Positions 15,678 to 26,877 of a DNA stretch of 55,001 bases are shown in pieces. The position numbers and the translations under genes are program-made. Below the pieces are notes generated by a model that worked only from the letters and a program-made list of their open reading frames with translations, was not told the origin of the DNA and ran no database searches. Each line of letters begins with the position of its first letter. The stretch's first letter is position 1. Location: positions 1-55,001 of IMG/VR virus record IMGVR_UViG_3300037424_000895. One strand, written 5' to 3'. This stretch comes from a virus (lineage: Duplodnaviria > Caudoviricetes).

Positions 15678-15710
15678 TTTGAATAATCTCCTATGATGTG
15701 ATGGAGATAT

Positions 15711-15947: not shown

Positions 15948-15976
15948 GACGGTGCAGAACGTCCATCGGTTTAGAG

Positions 15977-16354: not shown

Positions 16355-16709
16355 GAGAATCTTTACTTTCCGTTTTACCGTGCACGGTAATCTTACATTG
16401 ACCGATGATCGTGGTTAACAGCTCTTGCCGATGATTGTCAGCATAGAGAAATACAGTACCTCGATAGACGTTGTAATCCTCAACAGTACCGTCATATAAC
16501 TTTGTGCCACTGCCAGTTTCACAGTAAACGTTGAATGTTTTTGATCGTTGTACTTTATCAAAAGCTTCGTTTTGATCAACCAACTTTCGTGTTAAATTTA
16601 AGCCAGATAATACGATGAAGAGTCCAAGAATTATAAGCGAGCCTACGATTAGGTATACGCTGTACTTTTGAAAGAACGCCTTTATAGGTTTCAATTCAGT
16701 TTCTTTCAT
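16326..16709 (-). CDS. Membrane-anchored hypothetical protein
   Basis: N-terminal TM segment. Confidence 0.65.
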   Translation of the reverse strand: MKETELKPIKAFFQKYSVYLIVGSLIILGLFIVLSGLNLTRKLVDQNEAFDKVQRSKTFNVYCETGSGTKLYDGTVEDYNVYRGTVFLYADNHRQELLTTIIGQCKITVHGKTESKDSHDTKTIKVR

Positions 16710-16721
16710 TGAACACTTTCC

Positions 16722-16994
16722 TTAAAGGATTGTCTGTTGAGCATGAGCGATCAGCTCTTCTTGTACGACAAAAGCTTCTTGTTGGGCCTTGAGTGCATAA
16801 CTTCGTTCTACAAGAAGCTTTTTCCTCTTTTCGGTAGTTTCTTGGGTATCTCCCTCGACTTCGCTGGTGAGCTTGCCAAAGTCAGAGAAGATCTTGTTGA
16901 TCGCTTTTGCCTGATATCCCCAGCGGGATTCCTCAAGATCTCGAGGTTTAATACCCGGTACCCAGTTTTTGGGTAGATAAGGGAGATTAATCAT
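16722..16994 (-). CDS. Hypothetical protein
   Basis: 90-aa ORF. Confidence 0.65.
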   Translation of the reverse strand: MINLPYLPKNWVPGIKPRDLEESRWGYQAKAINKIFSDFGKLTSEVEGDTQETTEKRKKLLVERSYALKAQQEAFVVQEELIAHAQQTIL

Positions 16995-17215
16995 GCTTGC
17001 TCTGCTTTTGCTTTATTGATGGCCTCTAGATGCTTGCGGATGTACCTCATGAATAGCATCGCTTTGTCTTCATTTGCGAAGATCCCGTCACCGGTATCTT
17101 CAATGGGTACCGGGAATGAAAAACCACACTCAGTCATGTACCATAGTTCACCCTTTTGATAAAACTGGAAGCGAACTTTCTTGCCGTCTTTCACCATCTC
17201 TTTAATGTTCTTCAT
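16991..17215 (-). CDS. Hypothetical phage protein
   Basis: LWY.TECGF.FPVPIEDTGDG.F...DKA..FMRYIRK, a phage-type ORF. Confidence 0.75.
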   Translation of the reverse strand: MKNIKEMVKDGKKVRFQFYQKGELWYMTECGFSFPVPIEDTGDGIFANEDKAMLFMRYIRKHLEAINKAKAEQA

Positions 17216-17230
17216 CTTTCTCTTTCATTG

Positions 17231-17315
17231 TGGTGCGTCTGGGGAGACTCGAACTCCCAACCCTTTCGGGACATGGACCTCAACCATGCGCGTATACCAA
17301 TTCCGCCACAAACGC
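17231..17315 (-). tRNA. tRNA-Leu(GAG)
   Basis: Type II cloverleaf, CATGG-TTGAGGT-CCATG, encoded CCA. Confidence 0.92.
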
Positions 17316-17323
17316 GTTACGCA

Positions 17324-17521
17324 CTACTCTACCTTCAAGCATTGAGCGGTATAGAAGACGGTTGTCTCAGACTCATAAGAACCGCTGTACTTTACCGATC
17401 GATTGTGAACACCTGAGCTATACTGCTTCTCATAGTGTCTACAATCAACTTCACTCATCGGGATCTGTTGAGAAGAAACCCCGTTACTTACAATGATCGT
17501 CAAGATCAATATCCACTTCAT
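17324..17521 (-). CDS. Small protein with a signal peptide
   Basis: MKWILILTIIV N-terminus. Confidence 0.6.
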   Translation of the reverse strand: MKWILILTIIVSNGVSSQQIPMSEVDCRHYEKQYSSGVHNRSVKYSGSYESETTVFYTAQCLKVE

Positions 17522-17544
17522 GATATGCTTTCATGTATTATCCA

Positions 17545-17670
17545 GGATGACGCGGGTGGAATCGAACCACCGTACCCTCCATAGTCACCGATCTCTCAGC
17601 TAAGTCGGAATCGAACCGACAGTCTCCGAACCTCTTCAGGTCGTGCCTACCCCAACGTAGGACCGCGTCA
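17545..17670 (-). ncRNA. tRNA-like RNA with two T-arms
   Basis: Acceptor TGACGCG/CGCGTCA; GTCGG-TTCGATT-CCGAC and GGTGG-TTCGATT-CCACC. Confidence 0.7.
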
Positions 17671-17678
17671 AAGCAACT

Positions 17679-17918
17679 TCAAAATATTGCTACTGCTAAC
17701 AGCGTAATTCCTATTCCAAAGAGAAAAGATATCACTGCGACGATCAGGTTCACCAACAATAGCTTCGTGTAGAAGAAGTTGCTGATGATTCCAACCGCTT
17801 CTTCACGAATGATGGGAGCTGCTTCCTTAGCTAGCTTAACGGCCGTGTCTTTCATGCTGTCACTCGTATTGGTCAAGAATCGTTTACGGAAGTCGTTGGT
17901 AAGGACTTTGTTAGTCAT
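17679..17918 (-). CDS. Membrane protein
   Basis: C-terminal TM segment. Confidence 0.65.
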   Translation of the reverse strand: MTNKVLTNDFRKRFLTNTSDSMKDTAVKLAKEAAPIIREEAVGIISNFFYTKLLLVNLIVAVISFLFGIGITLLAVAIF

Positions 17919-17929
17919 GATCTTTCTTT

Positions 17930-18367
17930 CTATCTATGCTGCGGTTCCGGCTGGTTTCCATCCAAATGGATGGGACAATTTGCTGCGTGAATTTTGTACG
18001 GTGTTCCGAGACGTTCGGCGTTGTCCATTTTTGGACATGTACAGCCTGGAAAGTCAAAGAACCTGTGATGATTTGGATCTACCGGGAAGTTCCACAGTCG
18101 TTGTTGCTCATTCTCTAGAGCATCGAAAGTCGAAGCAAGCAACTTTAGCTTCAGAGGTTCATCGAGAACTTTCTTTGCAGCTTCGAACAGTTCCCATCGC
18201 AGTTGGTGGGACAGTTTTAGTGCCTCAAGTTGGTCGTCGGTAACTTTCTGCCTAGCCGCCAAAGCTGAATTTAGCACGGTGATGATCGTCTTGCCATCAG
18301 GGGCATACACGATGTATTTTCCCAATCCCATCTTTAGCAGATTTTGCTCGATGTTGTTCTCAGACAT
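17930..18367 (-). CDS. Hypothetical phage protein
   Basis: QQRLWNFP...GCTCPKMDN...CPIH Cys/His motif. Confidence 0.75.
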   Translation of the reverse strand: MSENNIEQNLLKMGLGKYIVYAPDGKTIITVLNSALAARQKVTDDQLEALKLSHQLRWELFEAAKKVLDEPLKLKLLASTFDALENEQQRLWNFPVDPNHHRFFDFPGCTCPKMDNAERLGTPYKIHAANCPIHLDGNQPEPQHR

Positions 18368-18389
18368 TTTGGAGTACCAGATAAAGAAA

Positions 18390-18463
18390 GGAGGGCTAGC
18401 AGGGAATCGAACCCCGGTTCATGGTCTTGGATGACCATCATTCTGCCATTGAATTACCAGCCC
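18390..18463 (-). tRNA. Atypical tRNA with an 8-nt anticodon loop (CATCCAAG; Trp/Gly-like)
   Basis: GGGCTGG/CTAGCCC acceptor, normal D- and T-arms, ATGGT-CATCCAAG-ACCAT. Confidence 0.65.
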
Positions 18464-18465
18464 AT

Positions 18466-18818
18466 GCTGAGGGGAGTCACCCCTCAGGTGATTCAATCCC
18501 TCGCGAATCCACAGGTGGAACGTTGGATTCGTGTATCGTCGCCGTGATAAGTAACATGAACTTGATCGCCCATGTAACCTCTACGAAGGCGCTGCTTTCT
18601 CGGCTCCTCGTGTGTACCTAGTAGTATTGCCAAGCGTTCCCGCTGTACCACAAGAGAAGTTGCGCGTTACAACTTCTCAAGGACCTTGGCTAGGTAGCCT
18701 ATAGCTCAACTGTCGCGTACTTTCAGTAGCACGAACTACTACAACATTCTAGGGTCCGAGCCTAGCGATGGACGCGTCAAGAATGAACCGGCCGATTCAT
18801 CCTCTATAACCGTCATGT
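18466..18818 (-). ncRNA. Candidate structured ncRNA between tRNAs
   Basis: ~350 nt, no credible ORF, several hairpins (CTGAGGGG/CCCCTCAG, GAGAAGTTG/CAACTTCTC, GAATCCA/TGGATTC). Confidence 0.55.
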
Positions 18819-18820
18819 TG

Positions 18821-18904
18821 GGTGCGAGATGAGGGACTCGAACCCTCACACCTTTCGGCGCTGGCTTCTAAGGCCAGTGCGTCTACCAATTCCGCCAACC
18901 TCGC
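18821..18904 (-). tRNA. tRNA-Leu(TAG)
   Basis: CTGGC-CTTAGAA-GCCAG, type II cloverleaf. Confidence 0.92.
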
Positions 18905-18907
18905 ATA

Positions 18908-19298
18908 CTTTGATACACCCCATTGCGCTCTCTTTCAAGTTCACACAATCAAAAGTTAACCTTGACTCAGGCTCTTGAACACTTCCGCGGTTCAAATTAC
19001 GTCCTATCCCTAGCAGTGACGTTATCTCTGCATTACCCGCCGGTACGGAATATCCACCGGAATCAATAGGCTGTGAACTAAGTTCCAGCTGTCACCTGAA
19101 GTGACCCGCGAATCTCAAGGACAGTCCTCGGTTATTTGTTCCCGAGGCACTGCCATGAGCCAGATCCTTCGCAGTAGGACCGGGTTTGTCTAACGATACG
19201 GCGATGCTCTTTACCTCGGCTTCGTATTACTTCCTAGGGAGCAACAGAGGATCGTTCAGGCTCTACCGTCTCAGCTAAGTCCCTTTCAGGCATCGTTA
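18908..19298 (-). ncRNA. Candidate structured ncRNA between tRNAs
   Basis: ~390 nt; closed domain TAACGAT...ATCGTTA, CCTCGG/CCGAGG, GTCAC/GTGAC, TTTGAT/ATCAAA. Confidence 0.55.
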
Positions 19299-19299
19299 C

Positions 19300-19385
19300 G
19301 GCAGAGGGTAACAGAATCGAACTGTCAACCATCGCTGGTTGGGACGGTTTTCAAGACCGTGTCCGCGCCATGCAGCCTACCCTCT
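19300..19385 (-). tRNA. tRNA-Ser(TGA)
   Basis: ACGGT-CTTGAAA-ACCGT, long variable arm, G73. Confidence 0.85.
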
Positions 19386-19389
19386 ATAT

Positions 19390-19615
19390 TCGGTTTCGTA
19401 TTCATCGCATGCGTTTAGCACTTTCCGTAAATCGGAGTTTAGGTTTTCACCATGCTACGATTCCTTGTAGGACTCAAGCTAACGAATACCGCTAGATCTA
19501 AAGTTTGCTAAGCAAGTAATCCACCGAAAGCTTCCTTGCTTTAAATCTCATGAGGCGACAAGATTAACGACCTTTGCTCTTATCTCTGGGACGGTCAAGC
19601 AGAGACCTCATGCTA
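19390..19615 (-). ncRNA. Candidate structured ncRNA
   Basis: No ORF; CATGAGG/CCTCATG, GTATTC/GAATAC and AGCAAG/CTTGCT stems. Confidence 0.45.
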
Positions 19616-19619
19616 GTGT

Positions 19620-19910
19620 TTAGTAATTCTCGCGAGTGATGCTAAACATCTCACGGAACTGTGTCGGTGTCAGATCAATATCCGTACCGAAGTATGTTTG
19701 CCGCAGTGTCTCGATAGACTTTCCCGGAGCAAGCTGTTCGATCAGCTTGGTCAGTTCAGCAGATTCACCAGCAATCAGCAACTTGATCATCTTCAGGAGA
19801 TCATTTGCTTCACCTACGGTCAAACAGCGTTTTGGACCGAATACATTTTTTGTGCAACGCTTGCCTTCAGGTGTGTACAGTTGCAGAACAGAAATGTACC
19901 AGAATTTCAA
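19620..19910 (-). CDS. Hypothetical early protein
   Basis: AAGGAG RBS; early promoter at 19964-19992. Confidence 0.7.
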   Translation of the reverse strand: MKFWYISVLQLYTPEGKRCTKNVFGPKRCLTVGEANDLLKMIKLLIAGESAELTKLIEQLAPGKSIETLRQTYFGTDIDLTPTQFREMFSITRENY

Positions 19911-19992
19911 CTTGTTCTCCTTTGCTTATAAATATCTGACGGATTCAAATATTTGATAAAGTCATTATATCACAGTACTTAAGAAAGTAAAC

Positions 19993-20649
19993 ATGAAAGT
20001 TAATTCTTTTTTCTACACTCACAATAACTTCACAGCTACCGATAGAACTCCGTTTACATATGTCATTCGTTGGAAAAAGACCAACGACATCTACTACGGC
20101 GTCAAGTTTGCAAAAGGCTGTCTTCCATCAGACCTTGGAACAACTTACTTTTCAAGCTCTAGCAGAATTAGAAATTTAATTAAGCAACACGGGGCTGAGA
20201 ACTTTGACTTTGAAGTTCGAAAAGTATTTCAAACTGTTGAAAAGGCAAGAGACTGGGAAACCAAAATTCTTACAAAGTTTCTTGAAAAGCCAAAATTTCT
20301 TAATAAGCACAAGAACGACGGATTCTGCAAGATAGACAACGCTGGAATTCGAAACCCTAGATATGGTACAATTTCAAATAAAGGCAGCCGTTGGTCTCTT
20401 TCAGAAGAAACAAAGCAAAAGATGAGAAAACCAAAGACCAAAGAACATGCTCAGAATGCAGCAAGAGCTAAGATCGGCAAAAGTGTATACCCTTCAGAAG
20501 AGACGAAGAAGAAAATGTCAATCTCTGGGAAAGCTAGAGTCAAAAATATAGTAACTTGTCCTCACTGTGGAAAAATAGGATTTGACAGAGGAATGACAAG
20601 ATATCACTTTGACAACTGCAAGACATTGAAACAACCTAAGATAGACTAG
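19993..20649 (+). mobile_element. GIY-YIG (Seg-like) homing endonuclease, antisense to the tRNA array
   Basis: FTYVI...IYYG, YFSSS, conserved E and N, SEETK.KM NUMOD3 repeats, CPHC; TATAAATA at 19927-19934. Confidence 0.85.
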
Positions 20650-20718
20650 AGTAGGACTTGAACCTACTTTCGCTTACCGAGATGTTTCACTCTGCGTTTT
20701 CCATTACGGGTCTAGTCT
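20642..20718 (-). ncRNA. tRNA-like RNA lacking a canonical anticodon arm
   Basis: AGACTAGA/TCTAGTCT stem, GTAGG-TTCAAGT-CCTAC T-arm, GTGAAAC-capped middle arm. Confidence 0.55.
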
Positions 20719-20719
20719 C

Positions 20720-20809
20720 GGTGGGTGCTGTAGGATTCGAACCTACGTTAGCTCCGCAGAGCCCTGGGGTTAATGCCCCAGTCGGAATCTCCAACTCCAT
20801 CGTACACCC
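20720..20809 (-). tRNA. Atypical type II (Tyr-like body) tRNA with a 6/8-nt anticodon loop (CATTAA)
   Basis: CTGGGG-CATTAA-CCCCAG, variable arm GGCTC/GAGCT, A73. Confidence 0.6.
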
Positions 20810-20895
20810 GGTGCGCGATGTCGGACTCGAACCGACACGCCCCTGAGGACCCGGACTTCTAAGGACCGGAAGACTACCAATTCCATCAATCGCGC
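20810..20895 (-). tRNA. tRNA-Leu(TAG), slightly degenerate
   Basis: CGGTC-CTTAGAA-GTCCG. Confidence 0.8.
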
Positions 20896-20986
20896 GGCGG
20901 AAGAATACGGAATCGAACCGTAAGCAGGTGTTATCCTGCTCGAGCTGCTTTCCAAGCAGACCTCAGCCCAGCTGAGTTAATCTTCC
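20896..20986 (-). tRNA. tRNA-Ser(GGA)
   Basis: CTGC-TTGGAAA-GCAG, long variable arm, G73. Confidence 0.88.
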
Positions 20987-21116
20987 ATGTGTTACTTGAT
21001 TACTTTTTCGTAGATCCTAACCGGAAGAACGATCGGGAACAGACATCCCAAGATAAAGTATGCCCACATCGTGTACAACCAGTTTGGCCATCCGTGCATG
21101 TTGATCTCCTTTAAAT

Positions 21117-21190
21117 TGGTGGACGTGACCGGAATCGAACCGACCAGGCTGCGTGGGTTTCACACAGAGCCTCCTGCCAGGCAGACGCCC
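21117..21190 (-). ncRNA. tRNA-like RNA ending in ACCA with no anticodon loop
   Basis: GGGCGT/ACGTCC acceptor, TTCGATT T-loop, long AGGCT...AGCCT arm capped by TGAAAC. Confidence 0.6.
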
Positions 21191-21193
21191 ATT

Positions 21194-21278
21194 TGGTGCC
21201 TCGAGAGGGACTCGAACCCTCAAGCCCTACGGGCGACGGATTTTAAGTCCGTTGCGTATACCATTCCACCACCGAGGC
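21194..21278 (-). tRNA. tRNA-Leu(TAA)
   Basis: ACGGA-CTTAAAA-TCCGT, type II, CCA. Confidence 0.93.
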
Positions 21279-21289
21279 ATTGTACTACC

Positions 21290-21343
21290 GGTGCGCATGG
21301 AGAGACTCGAACTCCCACGCCCTTTCGGACCCGAGATTCTTAG
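21290..21343 (-). pseudogene. 3' half of tRNA-Leu (apparent AAG anticodon); 5' half missing
   Basis: CTAAGAA-TCTCG, variable arm, T-arm and CATGCGC-ACC present; no D-arm or 5' acceptor strand. Confidence 0.7.
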
Positions 21344-21357
21344 AACTACCACAAATT

Positions 21358-21440
21358 TGGTACCAGCGGAGGGATTCGAACCCTCAATGGACTGAGCTCT
21401 CGACCCAGTAACTTTACCAATTCGTACTATCCACGCTGGC
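21358..21440 (-). tRNA. Atypical tRNA-Leu(GAG)-like with an extended acceptor-D connector
   Basis: GCCAGCG-TGGATAG...CTGGG-TCGAGAG-CTCAG-TCCATT; ACCA. Confidence 0.65.
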
Positions 21441-21450
21441 ATTTCTCTTG

Positions 21451-22020
21451 TTACTTATTGCTTCTGATATCTCTCATTTGCTCTGCTAGCGCCTTAAGTC
21501 GTTTGAACGACGTCGGTAAGCAGTTGTCAGGAACATCTGCAGCCTGTTCGACGACCAATGCAGCAAGTTCTCCAAACATCAAAACTGGGAGGTGTGTCTT
21601 CCGCATCATCTCGTCATGCTTTACATCAGTGATCTTGACACCGTCGATCTCAGTCACGATCTCATTGCAGATTTTCTGAAACATCTCGATGACTTCTTCA
21701 CTACCGGTAGAAGTATGTAAGACCTTCAGTGATAAGGTGACTGGGATACATCCAATGTTTGGACCCAACAGCCCAAAGGAAGGCAGAACCTGTATCGTGA
21801 CTCATACTGTGTTCGCGAATCTCTGAACTGAACAGATGTTCACGAGATGCTGTCCTACATGTTTTGCTGCTACTTCATCAAATGCAGAAACAGGAACCGA
21901 GAGAATCACCACGTCTGCTTCGTCTGAGTTCATTTCTGGAAGAATCTCAACATGAGGGGCAAGCTCTCTTGTTAGAAATGTACCGAAGACTCCTGAGCTG
22001 CCGATGATTGCAACTTTCAT
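21451..22020 (-). pseudogene. tyrA: Prephenate-dehydrogenase (TyrA)-like gene interrupted by an in-frame TGA
   Basis: MKVAIIGSSGVFG Rossmann start, DVVILSVP, CSVQ, xxGP, HDEMM; both ORFs in the same frame, separated by TGA at 21802-21804. Confidence 0.65.
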
Positions 22021-22045
22021 GTTAAGCTCCTGTTTAGTATAAAGA

Positions 22046-22122
22046 TGGTACCCCCGGAGGGACTCGAACCCTCAAAATCTACCTTCTGAAGATAGCATGT
22101 ATACCAATTCCATCACAAGGGC
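22046..22122 (-). tRNA. tRNA-Leu(CAG), short variable loop
   Basis: CTATC-TTCAGAA-GGTAG, ACCA. Confidence 0.88.
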
Positions 22123-22135
22123 ATTTACAAACTAC

Positions 22136-22237
22136 TGGCGGGCCTGCAGGGAATCGAACCCCGCTCAACGGTTTTCCGATGTACCCTCTTTGGAAGGCAC
22201 ATTGGAGACCGCTATATTACCGATATACGACAGACCC
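22136..22237 (-). tRNA. tRNA-Trp(CCA) with a 28-nt insertion after position 37
   Basis: GCGGT-CTCCAA-[28 nt]-A-ACCGT; otherwise canonical, G73-CCA. Confidence 0.8.
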
Positions 22238-22356
22238 GTTGTTACTTTGGGTGACGCAACGAATTGCGTCAATTCTTAGCAGCATAAGTATCTTGCTGCG
22301 TGTGACAATTTGGACATAAGAATCGCAGATTTTCCAATCGATGGTAGGAGTTCAAT

Positions 22357-22440
22357 TGGTGCCCTCGGTCGGATTCGAACCAACAAGAACTGCAGATTTT
22401 AAATCTGCTGGCTGTACCAATTTACCTTAGTCACGAGGGC
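22357..22440 (-). tRNA. Atypical tRNA-Leu(TAA) with an extended connector
   Basis: GCCCTCG-TGACTAA-GGT...GCAGA-TTTAAAA-TCTGC-AGTTCTT; ACCA. Confidence 0.8.
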
Positions 22441-22514
22441 GGCAGTTCATAGAGGAATCGAACCCCTGAGTGGAGATTTGGAGGCTCCCATGTTACCAAC
22501 TACATCAATGACCC
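22441..22514 (-). tRNA. tRNA-Trp(CCA) with some mismatches
   Basis: GGAGC-CTCCAAA-TCTCC, G73. Confidence 0.75.
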
Positions 22515-22587
22515 GGAGGGAAACTACGGAATCGAACCGCAATTTTGGAGGTTGGAGCTCCACGTCTTACCACTAGACCAGTAACCC
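22515..22587 (-). tRNA. CCA-anticodon tRNA with U73 and a mismatched acceptor stem
   Basis: TGGAG-CTCCAAC-CTCCA. Confidence 0.65.
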
Positions 22588-22593
22588 ATTTGA

Positions 22594-22684
22594 TGGCGGA
22601 AGATGGCGGATTTGAACCCCCTAACCCCTTTCAGGATCAAACAGCTTTCAAGGCTGTGCTGCTCTCCAAGACAGTAGATCTTCC
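22594..22684 (-). tRNA. tRNA-Ser(TGA)
   Basis: ACAGC-CTTGAAA-GCTGT, long variable arm, GCCA. Confidence 0.88.
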
Positions 22685-22771
22685 GGCTGAAGTTAAGAGA
22701 ATCGAACTCTCGTCCCTTTCGGGACGGCAACGGTTTTCGAGGCCGTTTGTACTCCATGTACGCTAACTTCC
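22685..22771 (-). tRNA. tRNA-Ser(CGA)
   Basis: ACGGC-CTCGAAA-ACCGT, long variable arm. Confidence 0.82.
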
Positions 22772-22773
22772 AA

Positions 22774-22859
22774 TGGTGGATGCCGAAAGATTCGAACTTT
22801 CTCAGCCAGTGGCAGAAGATTTACAGTCTTCCGAGACTCTCCAACGTCCCCGCGCATCC
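22774..22859 (-). tRNA. tRNA-Tyr(GTA)
   Basis: GAAGA-CTGTAAA-TCTTC, ACCA. Confidence 0.88.
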
Positions 22860-22860
22860 G

Positions 22861-23412
22861 TTACTTGTTGTAAAAGTCCTTCCAATTTGGAAGTTGAATC
22901 AATAAACTTTTACTCGAGAGAGTTTCTCTCTCATATTTCTTTTCACTGTGAATAATTCTATGATGATTTGGGCAAACATAGATCAAATTTGAAATTTCAT
23001 TTGTACCGCCGTTGCTCTTTTCAACAATGTGATGAACATCACCAATAGATTCATTCCATCCACAAATTGCACATCCAATTTTAGCTCTCTTAAAGATTTT
23101 AGAAATTGTTCTTGATGATAAATCCATCAACGAAACAGAACCTTCTTTAAAATGAACTACTTTTCTTTTGCAGTTATCACATACTATTTTTCTACCATTT
23201 TTAATTTTCTTCTTTTGAAAAGAAGTATTGCAATTTACACAAACATAATTAAAAATGACTTCTCTCTCAGGATATTGTCTCCCAGAAAGTTTCTTACTTA
23301 TTTTGTCTAAGGTTTCTTTGCTATGAACTCTTTGGTTTGCGCAAAATCTAGAACAAAATTTACCGCTTCCAAAACTTCCATCATTCTCTTTTCCACATCT
23401 TAAACAAATCAT
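22861..23412 (-). mobile_element. HNH homing endonuclease between two tRNA-Tyr genes
   Basis: CAICGW...DVHHI...GGTNEISNLIYVCPNHH; AT-rich; TATAAATA at 23437-23444. Confidence 0.88.
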
Positions 23413-23461
23413 TTGAGTCCTCTTTGACTAAAAATTTATTTATAGTCTAAGTGAATTCGAT

Positions 23462-23552
23462 TGGTGGATCTCGGGTCGAGTTGAACGCCAGGCCGCGAGG
23501 GAGATGGTTTACAGCCATCCGAGAAGACCGCTTCTCCTTATTGACAAGATCC
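23462..23552 (-). tRNA. Degenerate or atypical tRNA-Tyr(GTA)
   Basis: GATGG-CTGTAAA-CCATC; 8-bp acceptor, long connector, weak T-arm; ACCA. Confidence 0.65.
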
Positions 23553-23563
23553 AATGTTACTTC

Positions 23564-23647
23564 TGGTACCCTCGACCGGATTCGAACCGGTAAGAACTCT
23601 AGTTTTTGAAACTAGTGGCTGTGCCAATTTACCTAAGTCACGAGGGC
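23564..23647 (-). tRNA. Atypical tRNA-Leu(CAA) with an extended connector
   Basis: GCCCTCG-TGACTTA-GGT...CTAGT-TTCAAAA-ACTAG-AGTTCTT; ACCA. Confidence 0.8.
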
Positions 23648-23733
23648 GGCGGAAGATTGAGGGCACGATCCCCAGACCTTTCGGTCCCAACTGTTTAGCA
23701 AACAGCGCCGTCAACCTTGACGGGTAATCTTCC
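23648..23733 (-). tRNA. tRNA-Ser(GCT)
   Basis: GCTGT-TTGCTAA-ACAGT, long variable arm, G73. Confidence 0.85.
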
Positions 23734-23747
23734 AAAGATACTACTCC

Positions 23748-23762
23748 AAATTGTCAAAGATC
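23748..23762 (-). promoter_or_regulatory. boxA-like antitermination site at the head of the tRNA array
   Basis: GATCTTTGACAATTT versus rrn boxA TGCTCTTTAACAATTT. Confidence 0.6.
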
Positions 23763-23772
23763 GTTTACTTCT

Positions 23773-23809
23773 AAAGTAACTAGGGCGATTCCTTAGAATC
23801 GCCCTAGCT
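23773..23809 (-). terminator. Attenuator terminator hairpin
   Basis: AGCTAGGGCGATTC-TAAG-GAATCGCCCTAG followed by TTACTTT. Confidence 0.75.
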
Positions 23810-23836
23810 TAAATTCTTGAACTGAAAACTTGGTAC

Positions 23837-23935
23837 TTACACCTTGTTTATTCCTTCCAAGCAGCTAGGGCTCATCGTCAGCCAATATGACGATGAGAGT
23901 AGCAAACTGAGATAAGATAACAAAGTCGTTTTCAT
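23837..23935 (-). CDS. Leader peptide MKTTLLSYLSLLLSSSYWLTMSPSCLEGINKV (putative attenuator)
   Basis: Codons 5-19 are all Leu/Ser/Tyr/Trp; contains GCCCTAGCT, complementary to the terminator 5' arm; TATAAATA at 23944-23951. Confidence 0.8.
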   Translation of the reverse strand: MKTTLLSYLSLLLSSSYWLTMSPSCLEGINKV

Positions 23936-24016
23936 GATAAAAGTATTTATAGTTGAGCAACAATTTTCAAAACCGCTGGGGAGACTTTCGTCAACAAGAT
24001 CAGCAGGTGTTCCACG

Positions 24017-24071
24017 AGGAAACATTGACGATGATTGTCAGTGTTACGTACAATCATCGTCAATGTTTCCT
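24017..24071. repeat. Perfect 22-bp inverted repeat
   Basis: AGGAAACATTGACGATGATTGT-11 nt-ACAATCATCGTCAATGTTTCCT. Confidence 0.9.
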
Positions 24072-24084
24072 TTACTGTAAGAGA

Positions 24085-24114
24085 ATTGTATCACAAACTC
24101 TTACAAAAGTAAAC
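24085..24114 (-). promoter_or_regulatory. T4-type early promoter upstream of the leader and tRNA array
   Basis: GTTTACTTTT...TGATACAAT. Confidence 0.8.
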
Positions 24115-24128
24115 ATATTTGTTGAGTT

Positions 24129-24260
24129 AGGTGACTGGGCTTGATACCAGCTATAGTTCACGGCTCTCTCGATGTCCGAGCAGGCTACCCTGTGTGCTGT
24201 CATCACACTCGAATACGTGACTACATTTACTTGACGAACCGTGTCCATCCACGGCGCACC
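24129..24260 (-). ncRNA. tRNA-like ncRNA with an expanded central domain
   Basis: GGTG/CACC ends, CCGTG-GATGGA-CACGG D-like arm, GCTGG-TATCAAGC-CCAGT T-like arm. Confidence 0.55.
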
Positions 24261-24261
24261 T

Positions 24262-24336
24262 TGGATTGTCAGGACGGACTTGAACCGTCAGCTTTCACCC
24301 TCTCGGTGGACGTGCTATCATTACACTATCTGACAA
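24262..24336 (-). ncRNA. tRNA-like RNA with a non-canonical anticodon arm
   Basis: TTGTCAG/CTGACAA-T-CCA, GACGG-TTCAAGT-CCGTC, middle loop CGAGAGG. Confidence 0.65.
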
Positions 24337-24479
24337 TGTCGCAGCTGATAATCGACTACATTGACAAACTTTATTGAGATTTACTGTCTGAGCAACTTGG
24401 AACGATCCATTCTGATACTATGGGTACTTTCAAGTTACTACTCGTTGTCTCCATCGACGATTACGATACTAACAGAAGC

Positions 24480-24508
24480 ATTATATCACAGTAGTACAAA
24501 AAGTAAAC
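24480..24508 (-). promoter_or_regulatory. T4-type early promoter
   Basis: GTTTACTTTT...TGATATAAT. Confidence 0.8.
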
Positions 24509-24515
24509 TACTTTG

Positions 24516-24791
24516 TTACGGAATACATCCTGTGACAATCACGAACGCACCCTCACGAATTGCGTCAAGAGCTTTATCAGAGGGAAACTCAGGAAGCTCA
24601 TGTACGTACCATTCATCGACTTCACCCTCAACACAGATCCTCTTGGCCAGCGCATCGATCTCGTCGGTTTCTTTCTCTGTCGTTTCTACGAGGTTGATGT
24701 ACTTGTAGTTCAAGTGACGAAGATCGCCTTCTACGATTCCGTACGTCATGCGGTTTTCACCGAACCCATCAAAGATTACTAGTGTTTTCAT
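24516..24791 (-). CDS. Hypothetical protein
   Basis: 91-aa ORF. Confidence 0.7.
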   Translation of the reverse strand: MKTLVIFDGFGENRMTYGIVEGDLRHLNYKYINLVETTEKETDEIDALAKRICVEGEVDEWYVHELPEFPSDKALDAIREGAFVIVTGCIP

Positions 24792-25018
24792 GGGCGATTA
24801 CCGATAGTCAGTGCATCATCTGCTTTTCCGCCTAACCTACAGATGATCATGCGTGTAGACACGTCAAAATCTTTCAGCATTACGGCAGCTTCACAGGTCT
24901 TTGCTTCAGCAATCAACTTATTTTGATTGCTATAGTATGAAGAAATGATAGATACGATTGATACGATTCCTGCGACGGCTACGACCACGATAAATCCAGT
25001 TAAGAGTTTGTCACTCAT
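24788..25018 (-). CDS. Membrane-anchored protein
   Basis: N-terminal TM segment. Confidence 0.7.
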   Translation of the reverse strand: MSDKLLTGFIVVVAVAGIVSIVSIISSYYSNQNKLIAEAKTCEAAVMLKDFDVSTRMIICRLGGKADDALTIGNRP

Positions 25019-25210
25019 AAATTCCCTTTCAAAAAACTTTTGTCCCAGACTTAGAACTCTTCTCCTATTACCTTACGGACTCCATCAGCGTGATCTCCAA
25101 ACAAATCTAGGTTATGTGAATGATTAAAAATCGCATACAAAGCCTGAGCGTCCTCCCGCGTCTCACAGGTAAGTTTCACACCATTGGTGTGAAACTAAGT
25201 TCTGTAACGT

Positions 25211-25579
25211 TCATTTCAGTTTCTCCTTACTAACAACATATCCAGAGTTTTCAAGCAATTCCTTAGCGGCTTTTAATTCTTCAGATTCGAAATGGCACTT
25301 ATTGTACCACTCCTTGATTATTTCTATGTGGCTATCCGCTGTATCTGGAGTGAATACAACTTTACCATTCATAAATATCACATACTCCTTGAACATTGTT
25401 TCGAAGTCTGTTTTAAAGGCATGTTCGAGATATTGGTTTTTGATATTTACCCATGCATCATAACCAGAACTCCACTTAGCCCAAACTTTATCTCCCTCGA
25501 TACGAGTGACAACCCCAGAATCGGGACAGTCTGGATTGGTGTACACAACTTTATCACCAACTTTAAATTCTTTGCTCAT
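25211..25579 (-). CDS. Hypothetical protein with a KOW/SH3-like N-terminus
   Basis: FKVGDKVVY; AGGAG RBS. Confidence 0.7.
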   Translation of the reverse strand: MSKEFKVGDKVVYTNPDCPDSGVVTRIEGDKVWAKWSSGYDAWVNIKNQYLEHAFKTDFETMFKEYVIFMNGKVVFTPDTADSHIEIIKEWYNKCHFESEELKAAKELLENSGYVVSKEKLK

Positions 25580-25597
25580 TTCCGTTTCTCCTGAAGG

Positions 25598-25852
25598 TTA
25601 GGTGTCTGCATGTGGTACAAGCCGCCTAATCCCACTCAAGCAGTGAGTTATAGCGTTCTCGTATGCTTGGTCACTGTTTTCTATAATTTCCCCAAGCCTC
25701 TCATCTTCGCAGGCACGTAAAGCAGCGTTTAAACCCCAAGCCACCCCAAACCGGAAGGCGTCAGATAGCTGGCTTGGGTTTCTGGTGTCAAGACCGTGAG
25801 CGCGTAACCCAACATCTTCTGTTGGTGTGAGAGGTACTTTATGCATACTCAT
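25598..25852 (-). CDS. Hypothetical protein
   Basis: AGGAG RBS block identical to that of the neighbouring gene. Confidence 0.7.
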   Translation of the reverse strand: MSMHKVPLTPTEDVGLRAHGLDTRNPSQLSDAFRFGVAWGLNAALRACEDERLGEIIENSDQAYENAITHCLSGIRRLVPHADT

Positions 25853-25942
25853 TTCCGTTTCTCCTGAATTTTATCCAATACCCAACCATTCTTTGACTCG
25901 GTTCTGAGCCAGTTTACAGATTCCTCCCACTTCTTTTGGAGG

Positions 25943-26125
25943 CTAGTGCCTCACGTAAGGCATATAGACCCCTACTCCATTGAATGTAGCAGCTGCATGC
26001 GCTGTGATCTGTTTCTCAGTCTTTTCAACTCCGCACTTGGGACATGCTGGAGCTTCAGCGCTGAAGCTCTGTAGCTTCTCAAACTCATGATCACATTTTG
26101 AACACTTGAATACATATAGTGGCAT
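25943..26125 (-). CDS. FmdB-family zinc-ribbon protein
   Basis: MPLYVFKCSKCDHEFE.LQ...CPKCG. Confidence 0.85.
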   Translation of the reverse strand: MPLYVFKCSKCDHEFEKLQSFSAEAPACPKCGVEKTEKQITAHAAATFNGVGVYMPYVRH

Positions 26126-26139
26126 ATTTAAACTCTCCT

Positions 26140-26180
26140 CGATGTACTTGAAGACTCTTTTGAAGTCTTCAAGTACATCG
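26140..26180. repeat. 16-bp perfect inverted repeat downstream of the early promoter at 26231-26260
   Basis: CGATGTACTTGAAGAC...GTCTTCAAGTACATCG. Confidence 0.85.
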
Positions 26181-26262
26181 GCTCACTGAAGAACCGAGTA
26201 CGATAGCCCATTGCAAGCTATGTCAAAGACATTGTATCACAATGTCTCCGGGAAGTAAACAC

Positions 26263-26478
26263 TTACTTGAAACTGCGAACTAACTTGTCGAATTCTAGCT
26301 GAGCCTTATAGGCTGGGCTGCCGACGGTATAAACTTGACCGCTGGCCTTCAGTAGGTCACGTTCGGCTTTTAGTTTACTGCCAGCACGGATGATGGCAGA
26401 TGCGTGCGCCAGTCGTGTATCGATCGTAACACGAGGCTTACGCTTGGTGGTGCGAGTACGGGAAGTAGATGTATTCAT
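26263..26478 (-). CDS. Small basic early protein
   Basis: AAGGAG RBS; promoter at 26532-26561. Confidence 0.7.
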   Translation of the reverse strand: MNTSTSRTRTTKRKPRVTIDTRLAHASAIIRAGSKLKAERDLLKASGQVYTVGSPAYKAQLEFDKLVRSFK

Positions 26479-26574
26479 GTGGGCTCCTTTGATAGTTGAC
26501 TCAAGACGAGATCATTAAACTAGGAAGTTATATTTTAACTTAAGTTGCTAGAAAAGTAAACAATTTTGTTGTAA

Positions 26575-26877
26575 TTAGAAGATGAGGTACACTGAAGATT
26601 CTGCTAATTTAACAAGAACGTCACCATGACAATTGTCAGGATAACACCAGCAACCCAAGCTCTTTCCGCGCAATGTATGAATCTGCGCCATCAGTTCTTG
26701 GTTGCCGAGTAGATAATCACGGTATCTTTTGATCACTTCGGTTCTTGTACCATCTCTCCCGATCTTGTACGGATTCTGCCAGATCGAACCGTGGAATACC
26801 TTATCCCAATAGACCATCTTTCGCCCGATGTAGACGTCATACTCGGTCCTAAGAACGTGGACGACACGAGTCTTCAT
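26575..26877 (-). CDS. DUF4326-family protein
   Basis: YDVYIGR, S.W.NPY.IG.DGTR.EVI, L.GK.LGCWC.P..CHGDVL. Confidence 0.88.
   Translation of the reverse strand: MKTRVVHVLRTEYDVYIGRKMVYWDKVFHGSIWQNPYKIGRDGTRTEVIKRYRDYLLGNQELMAQIHTLRGKSLGCWCYPDNCHGDVLVKLAESSVYLIF

Follow-up and report, generated by a model that had tools for sequence, protein, structure and literature searches.

Phage tRNA genes have been known for more than 50 years, their purpose is still debated, and the control of their expression has received little attention. We addressed this question at one locus of a 55,001-nt stretch of phage DNA (from here on referred to as the window), in which a promoter, a short Leu- and Ser-rich ORF and a hairpin precede an array of tRNA genes on the same strand. 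The original prediction had read this layout as that of a leader-peptide attenuator. The anatomy of the locus, its conservation, covariation and a match between leader codons and array content in six phage records support this reading, and we consider it probable that the leader is a ribosome-mediated transcription attenuator of the phage tRNA operon, which would sense the codons read by the operon's own tRNAs.

A Leu/Ser/Tyr/Trp leader precedes the tRNA array

The features of the locus are collected in Table 1. A 32-codon minus-strand ORF, described before as lying at 23935-23837 and 8 nt after TATAAATA, is present with exactly these coordinates and this spacing, its ATG being at 23935-23933 and its TAA at 23839-23837; the frame stays open upstream to an ATG at 24025, an extension that is not conserved. 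Leader codons 5-19 (TTG TTA TCT TAT CTC AGT TTG CTA CTC TCA TCG TCA TAT TGG CTG) were recounted and gave the 15 straight Leu/Ser/Tyr/Trp codons, spread over many synonymous codons, that had been reported. As judged from all six frames, this is the longest run of these four amino acids in the window, the runner-up having 8 codons, and the counts of such runs drop ∼4-fold with each extra codon. All 11 anticodon classes are hit by the 15 codons (p = 0.003-0.008 for the window), and the probability per leader of sampling all classes is 0.0015-0.008 for the window and G001, a complete 345-kb relative, under uniform or phage codon usage.

Table 1. Features of the putative attenuator and of the tRNA genes behind it, in window coordinates
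Feature	Position	Strand	Remarks
Sigma70-like promoter, TTTACT-17-TACAAT with TG extension	24085..24113	(-)	Motif scan
Perfect 21-bp palindromic hairpin, transcript 5' end	24019..24071	(-)	Window-specific
TATAAATA box, conserved, 8 nt before ATG	23944..23951	(-)	Same box and spacing in G001
Leader ORF, ATG to stop	23837..23935	(-)	MKTT[LLSYLSLLLSSSYWL]TMSPSCLEGINKV; 32 sense codons
Putative sensor run, 15 Leu/Ser/Tyr/Trp codons	23879..23923	(-)	11 distinct codons, 1-2 per anticodon class
Hairpin P1, perfect 10 bp, 7-nt loop	23871..23897	(-)	5' arm inside run
Putative antiterminator strand GCCCTAGCT	23863..23871	(-)	Exact complement of 23809-23801 (AGCTAGGGC)
Putative terminator hairpin, 14 bp, loop TAAG	23778..23809	(-)	Followed by ACTTTAG (23777-23771)
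boxA GATCTTTGACAATTTGG, 17-mer	23746..23762	(-)	Putative host-type antitermination site
tRNA-Ser(GCU)-like gene, first behind leader	23647..23733	(-)	Long variable arm, non-canonical T loop
tRNA-Leu(CAA)	23568..23644	(-)	Relaxed ARAGORN; Rfam tRNA 28.7 bits versus cut-off 29
Rest of array, Tyr to Leu(GAG)	17231..22859	(-)	ARAGORN default and relaxed, Rfam

The array behind the leader had been said to carry only Leu, Ser, Tyr and Trp genes matching the sensor codons. ARAGORN at its default setting typed 11 genes downstream of the leader, all of which (11/11) belong to this set, and left one further gene untyped; the remainder of the match comes from relaxed or manual calls. Leu(CAA), Ser(CGA) and the second Leu(TAA) were found by ARAGORN at the relaxed threshold only, Leu(CAA) also showing a 78% match to a cyanophage tRNA, and the Ser(GCU)-like gene, missed by both ARAGORN and Rfam, was identified by manual reading, its cloverleaf fold and a homologue in G001. 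The distal part of the array holds Tyr, Ser(CGA), Ser(UGA), two Trp, two Leu(UAA), Leu(CAG), Ser(GGA), two Leu(UAG), a further Ser(UGA), a Trp-like gene with an 8-nt anticodon loop and Leu(GAG), interspersed with ORFs, some of them for homing endonucleases, and with an internal promoter (19991-19964). Relaxed ARAGORN also returned three doubtful calls outside the Leu/Ser/Tyr/Trp set in the array, one of them inside an ORF and two ambiguous. Further, the leader is not ahead of every tRNA-like gene: upstream of it, at 24336-24262, is one of 75 nt that has a promoter to itself (ARAGORN “Ser aga,” Rfam 34 bits). Genes for an RNA ligase and for a Ro-like TROVE protein are also present in these phages.

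The early promoter proposed upstream of the leader corresponds to a sigma70-like motif at 24113-24085. The motif is also found at 24507-24480 and 19991-19964, with a BLAST copy at 9410-9367; overall, the promoter scan did not exceed shuffled sequences (15 sites versus 12.1 ± 3.6). We detected no promoter between the terminator and the first tRNA gene in the window, so the tRNAs would depend on read-through of the hairpin. The 21-bp hairpin at the 5' end of the transcript is missing in G001 and in the X3 variant and therefore lies outside the conserved switch. The TATAAATA box, being A/U-rich, may serve for ribosome entry, or it may act as a second -10 element. We note that no Shine-Dalgarno sequence precedes the leader ATG in the window or G001, AGGAG being present at neighboring phage genes, and that GGA-type Shine-Dalgarno-like sites occur 5-9 nt upstream of the leaders in the related records G002, L307, L372, and L387.

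The leader RNA is predicted to form mutually exclusive structures

The leader RNA folds far more stably than shuffled sequences (z = -6.3 and -7.5). Three structural elements of the original prediction were recovered. First, the perfect 10-bp leader hairpin (P1) is found at 23897-23871, where it caps a longer imperfect hairpin joining the run to the remainder of the ORF. Second, the leader segment GCCCTAGCT is exactly complementary to the 5' arm AGCTAGGGC of the downstream hairpin, giving the antiterminator pairing GCCCUAGCU:AGCUAGGGC; of 5000 dinucleotide shuffles, 3 gave an ORF with at least 9 nt complementary to the terminator 5' arm. Third, the strong hairpin with a short T-rich tail before the tRNAs is a 14-bp hairpin with a weak T-tract, which reads ACTTTAG or, when counted from the 12-bp core, TTACTTTAG. 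This tail contains too few T residues for the hairpin to be listed in a terminator scan.

Folding with and without a ribosome footprint had been proposed as a check of the switch. The folding model is thermodynamic, assumes a ribosome footprint, and ignores kinetics. As predicted by this model, the antiterminator of the window has a probability of 0.02 without a ribosome, of 0.96-0.97 with the ribosome A site on codons 2-18, and of ∼0 from codon 19, the last codon of the run. A boundary at the end of the run, or at most one codon from it, is also predicted for G001, L307, and L372. In G002, the predicted boundary falls 5 codons ahead of the run end, and in G005 (L387), the modeled antiterminator only declines from 0.7 to 0.45, without a clear switch. 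The G001 antiterminator should, according to the model, also form on ribosome-free RNA (P = 0.95), which indicates that the untranslated state differs between relatives. Rfam returned 22 matches at E ≤ 1 over positions 15000-27000, with none to the leader and none to a T-box.

Leader codon content tracks array content in related phages

The layout of promoter, short ORF with a run of 14-16 codons, terminator, and tRNA array is common to five other huge-phage records, and the six leaders comprise 32 (window), 30 (G001), 24 (G002), 25 (L307), 26 (L372), and 26 (L387) codons. The leaders are probably homologous and hence do not represent six independent events. A comparison of leader codons with array anticodons in related phages, suggested earlier, gave a match in all six records, the run codons being cognate to the tRNAs that the operon would supply. 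In G001, the leader encodes Leu, Ser, Tyr, and Trp, as do 10 of the 10 ARAGORN tRNAs behind it, and the other array of this phage has 41 tRNAs, none of them for these four amino acids, and contains both Phe genes. In G002, a complete 527-kb phage, the leader encodes Phe, Leu, Ser, and Tyr; all 12 tRNAs behind it are of this set, and the other 47 tRNAs include the sole Trp gene and none for Phe, Leu, Ser, or Tyr. The identity of leader set and array set in these two phages indicates that codon content tracks array content. The tRNAs of the remaining three records likewise stay within Phe, Leu, Ser, and Tyr, with no Trp (7/7 in L307, 10/10 in L372, and 12/12 in L387), and the Trp and Phe codons of the run agree with the Trp and Phe genes of the array behind it in 6/6 records.

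The G001 run of 14 Leu/Ser/Tyr/Trp codons is the longest in its six frames (next, 9), and the G002 run of 15 Phe/Leu/Ser/Tyr codons is the longest of the 527-kb genome (next, 13). Coverage of the 11 anticodon classes is complete in the window, G001, L307, and L372, and amounts to 10 of 11 in G005/L387 (manual count) and 9 of 11 in G002. The ORF that separates the promoter from the first tRNA gene is conserved in start and frame and, in G001, approximately in length: G001 differs from the window by a 3-nt in-frame deletion that keeps the ATG, the frame, and the stop position, and the CTA codon lost from its run is compensated by a change of CTC to CTA elsewhere. The tails of the leader peptides diverge in sequence and length between relatives. 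Among variants taken from low-depth read contigs, X7 has a single change within the run, which is synonymous, and three changed codons outside it, all three of which alter the amino acid; the X3 contig shows six differences over codons 1-14.

Compensatory changes in the antiterminator/terminator pair had also been anticipated, and the window and G001 do change in a coordinated way at three positions (leader C to T, terminator 5' arm G to A, and 3' arm C to T; pairs read by eye). The G001 antiterminator AGCCTTAGC pairs with GCTAAGGCT, a result reached by 13 of 5000 shuffles, and the G001 terminator hairpin lies at the same place with its upper stem rewritten by three compensatory pairs, followed by a T-rich tail. 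The top pair of P1 covaries in G001 (A:U to C:G), and one of its middle pairs is broken by an A.A or C.A mismatch in G001, X3, X6, and X7. The antiterminator pairing is 9 bp and exact in the window and G001, and a pairing of 8 bp is predicted in L307 and L372. An intrinsic-terminator-like hairpin is found at the same place in 6/6 leaders, with tails of T7-T8 in G002, L307, L372, and L387 and the weak tail in the window. The terminators of L307 and L372 differ by two compensatory pairs, with 96% of cells paired versus at most 60% when the partner is slid; the corresponding shuffle control (130 of 500) is uninformative for two sequences.

A host-type boxA lies between the terminator and the first tRNA gene

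The boxA-like site noted before the first tRNA proved to be an exact Planctomycetota rRNA-leader boxA, which points to Planctomycetota as the host of this group of uncultured 345-527-kb phages. The exact 17-mer is present in at least 120 bacterial loci, and Planctomycetota account for 65 of the 80 listed. Of eight loci examined, four have the 17-mer 216-364 nt upstream of 16S/23S rRNA genes, and four have it within tRNA arrays. By this identity and by its place between promoter and structural RNA genes, the site qualifies as an rrn-type boxA, and it is kept in G001, X7, G002, L307, L372, and L387. A tRNA begins within 150 nt downstream at 13 of 120 viral boxA sites. No attenuator-like leaders were found at 120 bacterial boxA loci.

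A model for the control of the tRNA array, and alternatives to it

We propose that host RNA polymerase would start at the promoter and that a ribosome would translate the 32-codon leader. If any charged Leu, Ser, Tyr, or Trp isoacceptor were scarce, then the ribosome would stall within the 15-codon run and keep open the hairpin between the run and the remaining ORF; GCCCUAGCU, thereby freed, would pair with the terminator 5' arm, and the polymerase reading through would be turned termination-resistant at boxA and transcribe the array. With plentiful tRNAs, the ribosome would pass the run and cover or block GCCCUAGCU, the terminator would form, and transcription would end. As a net outcome, the supply of precisely these tRNAs would be under negative feedback. 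In this scheme, we infer that the ORF is translated, that transcription terminates at the hairpin, and in which direction the switch works, as well as its physiological trigger; the host itself is inferred, and its transcription-translation coupling is assumed.

Negative feedback on tRNA supply is the simpler reading and fits equally well as a trigger by anticodon nucleases, and host anticodon nucleases in that role are speculation. The same attenuator could serve as an infection timer or general meter of translation capacity, with no defense system involved, an account to which we give somewhat less than an even chance. Codons ending in A or T and rare in the host would stall the ribosome early and the array would open; as phage tRNAs accumulate, the array would shut. 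Many codons of the run do end in A or T, the phage G+C content is 42-49%, and feedback follows directly from the architecture. The RNA ligase and Ro-like protein, on the other hand, hint at RNA damage and repair. This account is a sub-case of the attenuator that we prefer, and the evidence does not separate it from a defense-triggered version.

Such a version, which we offer tentatively and regard as rather unlikely, is that the leader takes a codon-by-codon census of the isoacceptors of the array, detects selective tRNA loss, and prompts replacement, forming a sense-and-replace counter-defense circuit built from attenuator, terminator, and a borrowed host boxA. The monitored set would be the long-variable-arm Leu, Ser, and Tyr tRNAs plus Trp or Phe, lost, for example, to a host tRNA-cleaving defense, and the huge phages would divide their tRNAs between two arrays for the reason that no other tRNAs are under such surveillance. 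In the one study considered for a tRNA nuclease specific to this set, a bacterial Schlafen protein cleaves Lys, Ala, and Met tRNAs and not the set of the leader (PMC13056530), which favors the timer. As a separate explanation for this set of tRNAs, we considered modification of A37; MiaA (PF01715) is absent from G000-G002, and the link is thus unsupported.

We consider it improbable that the leader is a structured untranslated RNA, i.e. an element for RNA processing or stability, a module that acts with boxA in pausing or antitermination, or a small RNA, with the open frame as a by-product of a pyrimidine-rich hairpin arm. The run does form the 5' arm of a long predicted hairpin in the window, L307, L372, and L387, and the fold is very stable; however, in the predicted fold of G001, the first seven codons of the run are unpaired and yet all encode Leu, Ser, Tyr, or Trp. 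A pyrimidine-rich arm would, moreover, yield Phe and Pro, whereas there is no Pro in the run of any leader, and Phe appears only where the array carries tRNA-Phe. The missing Shine-Dalgarno sequence in the window and G001 would fit an untranslated RNA. In the four other leaders, a Shine-Dalgarno-like site is suitably spaced from the start codon, and the ATG, the frame across the 3-nt deletion, and the stop position are kept. The leader also matches no Rfam family.

It is more improbable still that the product of the ORF is a working Leu/Ser-rich micro-protein, for instance a small peptide of the membrane, that the terminator belongs to this gene alone, and that tRNA adjacency and codon content are incidental. 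A Leu/Ser-rich core is present in 6/6 leaders, and the run is hydrophobic like a signal or transmembrane segment, but it is about half Ser and lacks Ile, Val, Ala, Gly, and Met. The tails are conserved in neither sequence nor length, codon changes outside the run alter the amino acid, the Phe/Trp content shifts along with that of the array, and the near-complete use of synonymous codon classes would be unexpected in a micro-protein. Although a promoter of its own precedes the ORF and a hairpin follows it, the tRNAs have no promoter after that hairpin and therefore need read-through, and the antiterminator complement and its covariation would be left without a role. Finally, an accidental ORF with accidental complementarity in a T-rich spacer, with features picked after the sequence was seen, has a negligible probability and is already refuted by the comparative data, given the small probabilities for run length, class coverage, and complementarity, the retention of the element in G001 at 28-79% protein identity to the window, and the recurrence of the layout in further records.

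Relation to known systems

Leader-peptide attenuators are known from trpL, hisL, leuL, and pheL, from the multivalent thrL and ilvL, and from pheST (pheM). As in the attenuators of amino acid operons, a short ORF with many regulatory codons separates the promoter of the phage element from the genes behind it, and an intrinsic-terminator-like hairpin follows this ORF; an upstream segment can pair with the terminator 5' arm, and the regulatory codons take part in a hairpin. Like thrL and ilvL, the phage leader would sense more than one amino acid, namely four. It differs from them in several respects. First, the regulated genes are the sensed tRNAs themselves, and behind the terminator we found tRNA genes instead of genes for biosynthetic enzymes or aminoacyl-tRNA synthetases. 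Second, almost all synonymous codon classes appear once or twice in the run, in place of a repeat of one codon. Third, the stop codon of the leader lies after the antiterminator strand and not before it. Fourth, the element is phage-borne, with a boxA after the terminator. To our knowledge, no other case of leader-peptide attenuation of tRNA genes is known, the known cases being amino acid biosynthesis or aminoacyl-tRNA synthetase genes. For pheL, attenuation of an amino acid operon by a leader peptide is described in PMC3082878.

The phage element would resemble T-box riboswitches in reading tRNA status and in choosing between terminator and antiterminator ahead of translation-related genes. 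A T-box riboswitch, however, binds uncharged tRNA directly through a specifier codon and the T-box, independently of the ribosome, whereas the phage element has a conserved ORF. Antitermination at rrn-type boxA sites depends on NusB/S10, and the boxA of lambda nut is a related case. As in rrn operons, the phage boxA (23762-23746) lies between a promoter and untranslated structural RNA genes; unlike the rrn site, it belongs to a phage and stands directly behind a putatively regulated terminator, and it is recognized here by sequence identity.

Phage tRNA arrays have been described as supplementing the codons that can be read or as replacing tRNAs that host defenses have cleaved (PMC10264068). 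Our phages share with those described a large set of phage-encoded tRNAs, accompanied by an RNA ligase and a Ro-like protein in the genome. The work considered here deals with the purpose of phage tRNAs and contains no sensing device that controls their transcription. In the open-access literature and bioRxiv, we came across no account of leader-peptide attenuation upstream of tRNA genes, in line with the earlier statement that none was known for phage tRNA arrays.

If the model is true, then the element would be a self-sensing circuit in which tRNA is gauged by translation of a test peptide and the gauge sets tRNA transcription. The sensor design, with one or two codons per isoacceptor rather than one repeated codon, would be new. 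The amino acid set of the leader would state which tRNAs the phage treats as limiting and so give a handle on the purpose of phage tRNAs, and, as a synthetic biology part, the leader could be a compact natural reporter of the availability of many tRNAs at once. The boxA identity further offers a host assignment for phages that are uncultured.

Searches for further leaders

Among short ORFs near the 124 ARAGORN tRNAs of G000-G002 (up to 450 nt upstream; 14-residue window with at most four amino acid types), the only low-diversity ORFs were the leaders of G001 and G002; the window leader lies more than 450 nt from any default-called tRNA and hence outside this survey. No leader was found upstream of G001 array A. 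The phage collection contained no close relative, the best protein match being one of 26% identity to a 595-kb uncultured phage, and the single match in its DNA search was a tRNA. As queries for related loci, the PcfJ-like neighbor gave no relative and the HNH neighbor alignment gave G001 only. An exact scan for the terminator palindrome had no match, and pattern scans with the ORF start, the post-terminator spacer, and, in metagenomes, the ORF pattern returned G001 or its metagenome twin and otherwise chance matches. The ∼50 chance matches to the 15-mer start of the leader had runs of at most 6. A scan of 119 viral boxA loci for Phe/Leu/Ser/Tyr/Trp runs of at least 11 listed 21, of which L307, L372, and L387 were taken as leaders. 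The others listed include L291 (20 residues, 8 codons), L309 (14 residues), and L384 (14 residues), the remaining runs being shorter or of low complexity.

The leader ORF and its codon run

The original prediction described a 32-codon leader ORF that would act, through an attenuator, as a sensor of the tRNAs encoded downstream, and all of its coordinates and sequence statements proved correct when we checked them again (see the table below). Conceptual translation of the ORF gives MKTT[LLSYLSLLLSSSYWL]TMSPSCLEGINKV, and its codons 5–19 form a run of 15 Leu, Ser, Tyr, or Trp codons. This run is the longest of its kind across the six frames of the window, where the runner-up has 8 codons and the number of such runs drops ~4-fold with each extra codon. 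Its 11 distinct codons represent every one of the 11 standard anticodon classes of this amino-acid set (Leu CAA, UAA, GAG, UAG, and CAG; Ser GGA, UGA, CGA, and GCU; Tyr GUA; Trp CCA), an outcome seen in 0.3–0.8% of trials when 15 such codons were drawn at random. Further, when the window ORF was dinucleotide-shuffled, 3 of 5000 sequences had a complement of at least 9 nt to the 5′ arm of the 14-bp hairpin, and the leader RNA is far more stable (z = −6.3 and −7.5) than its own shuffles. Folding predicts that the entire run makes up the 5′ side of a long, imperfect hairpin, topped by the perfect 10-bp hairpin of the original prediction.

The layout of a leader upstream of its array stood insofar as tRNA genes follow the leader, but one tRNA-like gene with its own promoter also precedes it. 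The T-tract in the window is poor, and the 14-bp hairpin is absent from the terminator-scan list. The palindrome directly after the leader promoter may be an inserted element or an RNase III site. The parent record, of an uncultured virus, has a CheckV completeness of 15%, and the window, a 55-kb fragment of it, thus derives from a huge phage.

Features of the leader region, its tRNA array, and related loci (window positions unless a genome or locus is named)
Feature	Position	Strand
tRNA-like gene, 75 nt, own promoter, upstream of leader	24336–24262	minus
σ70-like promoter, TTTACT-17-TACAAT, TG-extended	24113–24085	minus
Perfect palindromic 21-bp hairpin (inverted repeat)	24071–24019	minus
TATAAATA box	23951–23944	minus
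Leader ORF, 32 codons (ATG at 23935, end at 23837)	23935–23837	minus
14-bp hairpin, then ACTTTAG	23809–23778	minus
17-mer GATCTTTGACAATTTGG	23762–23746	minus
tRNA genes	from 23733 on	minus
HNH endonuclease gene (Pfam HNH)	22861–23412	minus
Short ORF between two tRNAs	22269–22355	minus
Adjacent small ORFs within array	21451–21768, 21802–22020	minus
218-aa ORF, strand opposite to array	19993–20649	plus
Non-coding stretches among array tRNA genes	18470–18810, 18910–19290	minus
Untyped tRNA gene	18390–18463	minus
TROVE-domain (Ro60-like) protein and RNA ligase	33005–34081 and 50687–51319	minus
Cofactor metabolism genes	3809–4903, 5146–6732, 8137–9315	minus
Tandem promoter-like copies	G002:C1:404400–405600	minus
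Small ORFs between leader terminator and tRNAs	L163 (G002) 9443–9700	minus
Lys-rich ORF between terminator and tRNAs	L372 5300–5415	plus
Suppressor-type tRNAs	G001:C1:202917–202992; G002:C1:167265–167425	
tmRNA gene	G001, near 306.5 kb	

Conservation of the leader in a complete relative

A scan for unusual tRNA-Leu led to G001, a genome of 345,069 bp with terminal repeats and a completeness rating of 100%, which is syntenic with the window at protein identities of 28–79%. The leader regions can be aligned (mean column identity 80%), and the G001 leader has the same TATAAATA-N8-ATG followed by MKTT[SSLYLSLLSSSYLW]TKSLSDCEKPGI. From window to G001, TTG TTA TCT becomes TCC TCT TTA, TGG CTG becomes CTG TGG, one CTA codon is lost in frame, and a CTC elsewhere becomes CTA, so that the substitutions in the run remain inside the Leu/Ser/Tyr/Trp set; the tails of the two leaders differ in both sequence and length. 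The G001 run is the longest in its 345 kb (14 codons; runner-up 9) and covers 11 of 11 classes within these 14 codons (P = 0.15–0.4%).

In the upper stem of the putative terminator hairpin, a G:C pair has become U:A and two U:A pairs have become C:G, all of them compensatory, and the tail of the G001 hairpin is T-rich. The predicted antiterminator pairs GCCCTAGCT with AGCTAGGGC in the window and AGCCTTAGC with GCTAAGGCT in G001, through coordinated changes in the leader (C>T) and in the 5′ (G>A) and 3′ (C>T) arms of the terminator. Compensatory changes of this kind, for which a search of relatives had been proposed, are thus found; 13 of 5000 shuffles gave the G001 antiterminator complement. 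G001 lacks the 21-bp palindrome.

Near-identical leaders are also present in other metagenomes, from sediment and wetland, in contigs with a depth below 5, so that single differences are possibly errors. The only change within the run of variant X7 is synonymous (TCA>TCC), and its three changed codons outside the run all alter the amino acid (ATG>AAG, TGC>TAC, and GTG>ATC); a 1-nt deletion lies immediately past its stop codon. The ATG>AAG change, common to X7, G001, X3, and X6, disrupts one pair of the 10-bp hairpin, so that only the window has this stem in perfect form. In variant X3, which lacks the palindrome, tRNA-Ser(GCU) also follows the leader.

A planctomycete boxA follows the putative terminator

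The 17-mer behind the hairpin is kept in G001 with two differences and in X7 with one. Exact copies occur at at least 120 bacterial genome loci. Going by record title, 65 of the 80 listed exact matches belong to Planctomycetota, most of them to Pirellulales, and the scattering of other phyla is accounted for by chance, which should give about 70 hits across the whole collection. At four of eight loci examined, a 16S or 23S gene follows 216–364 nt downstream of the 17-mer, and at the other four it lies within large chromosomal tRNA arrays. By this placement and taxonomic bias, the 17-mer is the boxA of planctomycete rRNA and tRNA genes, bearing out the suggestion of a boxA-like site, and hence the host is likely a member of the Planctomycetota. 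In viral contigs, a tRNA starts within 150 nt downstream at 13 of 120 sites of the 17-mer with one variable position allowed. We note that four planctomycete loci (L192, L208, L229, and L235, in Stieleria, Rubripirellula, and Pirellulaceae chromosomes) are dense arrays of 13–27 tRNA genes per 8 kb with the 17-mer inside.

Codon content follows the array in six leaders

Four more huge-phage records with leaders were reached via boxA.

Leaders reached via boxA
Record	Size	Leader	tRNAs behind leader
G002	527,112 bp, 100% complete	MGI[FSSSLSFLFLSLYLS]DRWRCA	12/12 Phe, Leu, Ser, or Tyr (309–321 kb)
L307		MRN[LLSSLFSLLSSSLYS]DGRGGPV	7/7 Phe, Leu, Ser, or Tyr; no Trp
L372		MRT[LLSSLFSLSLLSSLYS]DGIGGSV	10/10 Phe, Leu, Ser, or Tyr; no Trp
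L387	436 kb	MHA[LLSYSLSSLSSLFS]EPGETAAVA	12/12 Phe, Leu, Ser, or Tyr; no Trp

In the window and G001, run and array both contain Trp and lack Phe; in these four, both contain Phe and lack Trp. The correspondence of codon content with array anticodons, proposed originally as a refutation test, thus holds in six of six. The runs of L307 and L372 cover 11 of 11 classes of their own set, that of L387 covers 10, and that of G002 covers 9; L307 uses all six Leu codons, once each, and the G002 run is the longest Phe/Leu/Ser/Tyr run in its genome. The six leaders share a Leu/Ser-rich core, G001 and G002 share a AGCCUUAG/CUAAGGCU motif, and the six are likely homologous and not independent inventions. 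In L387, tRNA-Ser(GCU), 7 nt past the terminator T8, is the first gene behind the leader, as in the window and G001.

The G002 leader has a promoter (TTGAAA-17-TATAAT) and a ribosome site of GGA type, and its 17-bp terminator carries a T7 tail. L307 and L372 share the order ORF, long terminator with T7–T8, tRNA-Phe, boxA, and Tyr/Leu/Ser genes. A Shine-Dalgarno-like site precedes all four of these leaders, and none was found before the ATG of the window or G001. Between terminator and tRNAs, G002 has ORFs of 49 and ~80 aa, one with its stop codon inside boxA, and L372 has one of ~33 aa, indicating that the regulated unit is not tRNA alone. About 20 tandem promoter-like copies, spaced ~60–75 nt, resemble the G002 leader promoter elsewhere in that genome.

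As controls for specificity, some 50 sequences that match the opening 15 bases of the leader ORF by chance had runs of at most 6. Of the short ORFs lying no more than 450 nt upstream of the 124 ARAGORN tRNAs in the window, G001, and G002, only the G001 and G002 leaders had a 14-residue stretch of at most four amino-acid types; the window leader was missed because its first two tRNAs are uncalled at the default threshold. None of 120 bacterial boxA loci had a comparable ORF, and the 119 viral boxA loci gave leader-like ORFs in L307, L372, and L387, with other Leu/Phe/Ser-rich runs in L291, L309, and L384.

The tRNA arrays behind the leaders

Throughout the G001 genome, ARAGORN places the tRNAs in two arrays. 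None of the 41 genes at ~221–241 kb is for Leu, Ser, Tyr, or Trp (they serve Arg, Val, Thr, His, Gly, Met, Cys, Phe, Gln, Ile, Lys, Pro, Glu, Ala, Asp, and Asn), and this array begins straight from a promoter, without a leader. Immediately behind the leader (313–319 kb), 10 of 10 genes are for Leu, Ser, Tyr, or Trp, and relaxed settings add three, all Leu or Ser. Similarly, the other 47 tRNAs of G002 (55–168 kb) include its sole Trp and none for Phe, Leu, Ser, or Tyr. The set behind the leaders consists of the tRNAs with long variable arms (Leu, Ser, and Tyr) and, in addition, Trp or Phe. Two ideas on why this set is singled out found no support: Schlafen-type nucleases, of which a bacterial one is reported to cleave Lys, Ala, and Met tRNAs (PMC13056530), and a phage MiaA, which is absent from the window, G001, and G002. 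In the window, both of the first tRNAs behind the leader are weakly called. Leu(CAA) appears with relaxed ARAGORN only (Rfam 28.7 bits), and Ser(GCU), called by neither ARAGORN nor Rfam, was assigned by manual reading, by a cloverleaf fold in which the variable arm is long, and by its G001 homologue.

The window array holds further elements. Its untyped tRNA gene (Rfam 50 bits; ARAGORN "cc") is Trp-like with an expanded loop, since by manual reading its 8-base anticodon loop contains CCA; G001 and G002 also have untyped tRNAs of this sort. Two stretches of ~340–380 nt, with neither an ORF nor an Rfam hit at E ≤ 1, may be structured RNAs of a new type or intron remnants. The two adjacent small ORFs (60–67% identity in G001; no Pfam hit) may be a single gene split by a frame change. 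An HNH gene between tRNA-Leu(CAA) and tRNA-Tyr and a short ORF with a CxxC...H segment, read as an HNH-like remnant, point to mobile endonucleases colonizing the array, which also carries a 218-aa ORF.

A model of the proposed switch

We infer the whole switch mechanism from sequence and a crude thermodynamic model, in which RNA was folded at the stage when the 5′ arm of the terminator has emerged and the 3′ arm has not, with a ribosome masking −15 to +11 nt around the A-site codon. Without a ribosome, the window's long hairpin is predicted to hold the antiterminator strand (P(antiterminator) = 0.02). With the A site on codons 2–18, P would be 0.96–0.97, falling to ~0 from codon 19, the last of the run; the run thus appears to end where the ribosome starts masking the antiterminator strand, and at the stop codon the pairing would need to enclose the ribosome. 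For G001, the model gives 0.94–0.99 to codon 17 and then 0 under a no-enclosure rule, with an untranslated state unlike that of the window (P = 0.95). In L307 and L372, the modeled 5′-arm sequestration falls from 0.73 to 0.26 no more than one codon from the run end. Footprint-constrained folding, as originally suggested, thus places a switch near the run end in four leaders, but five codons early in G002 and without a clear switch in L387.

A ribosome stalled in the run would leave the antiterminator free to form, allowing read-through, and one past the run would block it, causing termination. Because boxA lies beyond the terminator, only polymerases past this decision point would become termination-resistant for the long untranslated array.

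Relation to known attenuators

The attenuator-type layout was confirmed: the element would work like the trp, his, leu, thr, ilv, and phe attenuators and has their structural hallmarks, apart from a doubtful ribosome site in the window. Unlike them, it controls tRNA genes, its sensor has nearly one codon per isoacceptor for four amino acids, and it is phage-borne and linked to a boxA of the host. Nor is it a T-box, as Rfam at E ≤ 1 gave no T-box match over positions 15000–27000, and we found no description of such a leader before tRNA genes in open-access papers and bioRxiv. We consider it probable that the leader works as an attenuator whose codons match its array; that it serves as a sense-and-replace circuit of counter-defence seems rather unlikely.

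Elsewhere in the window, a TROVE-domain protein and an RNA ligase, kept in G001 at 67% and 79% identity, are an RNA quality-control/repair set sharing the genome with the regulated array. Suppressor-type tRNAs (anticodon CTA in G001 and G002, TTA in G002) and the G001 tmRNA hint at recoding, or at read-through of stop codons, in these phages. The cofactor genes of the window encode a CoaE-cytidylyltransferase fusion, a nicotinamide/nicotinate phosphoribosyltransferase, and an NMN-adenylyltransferase-like protein fused to Nudix.
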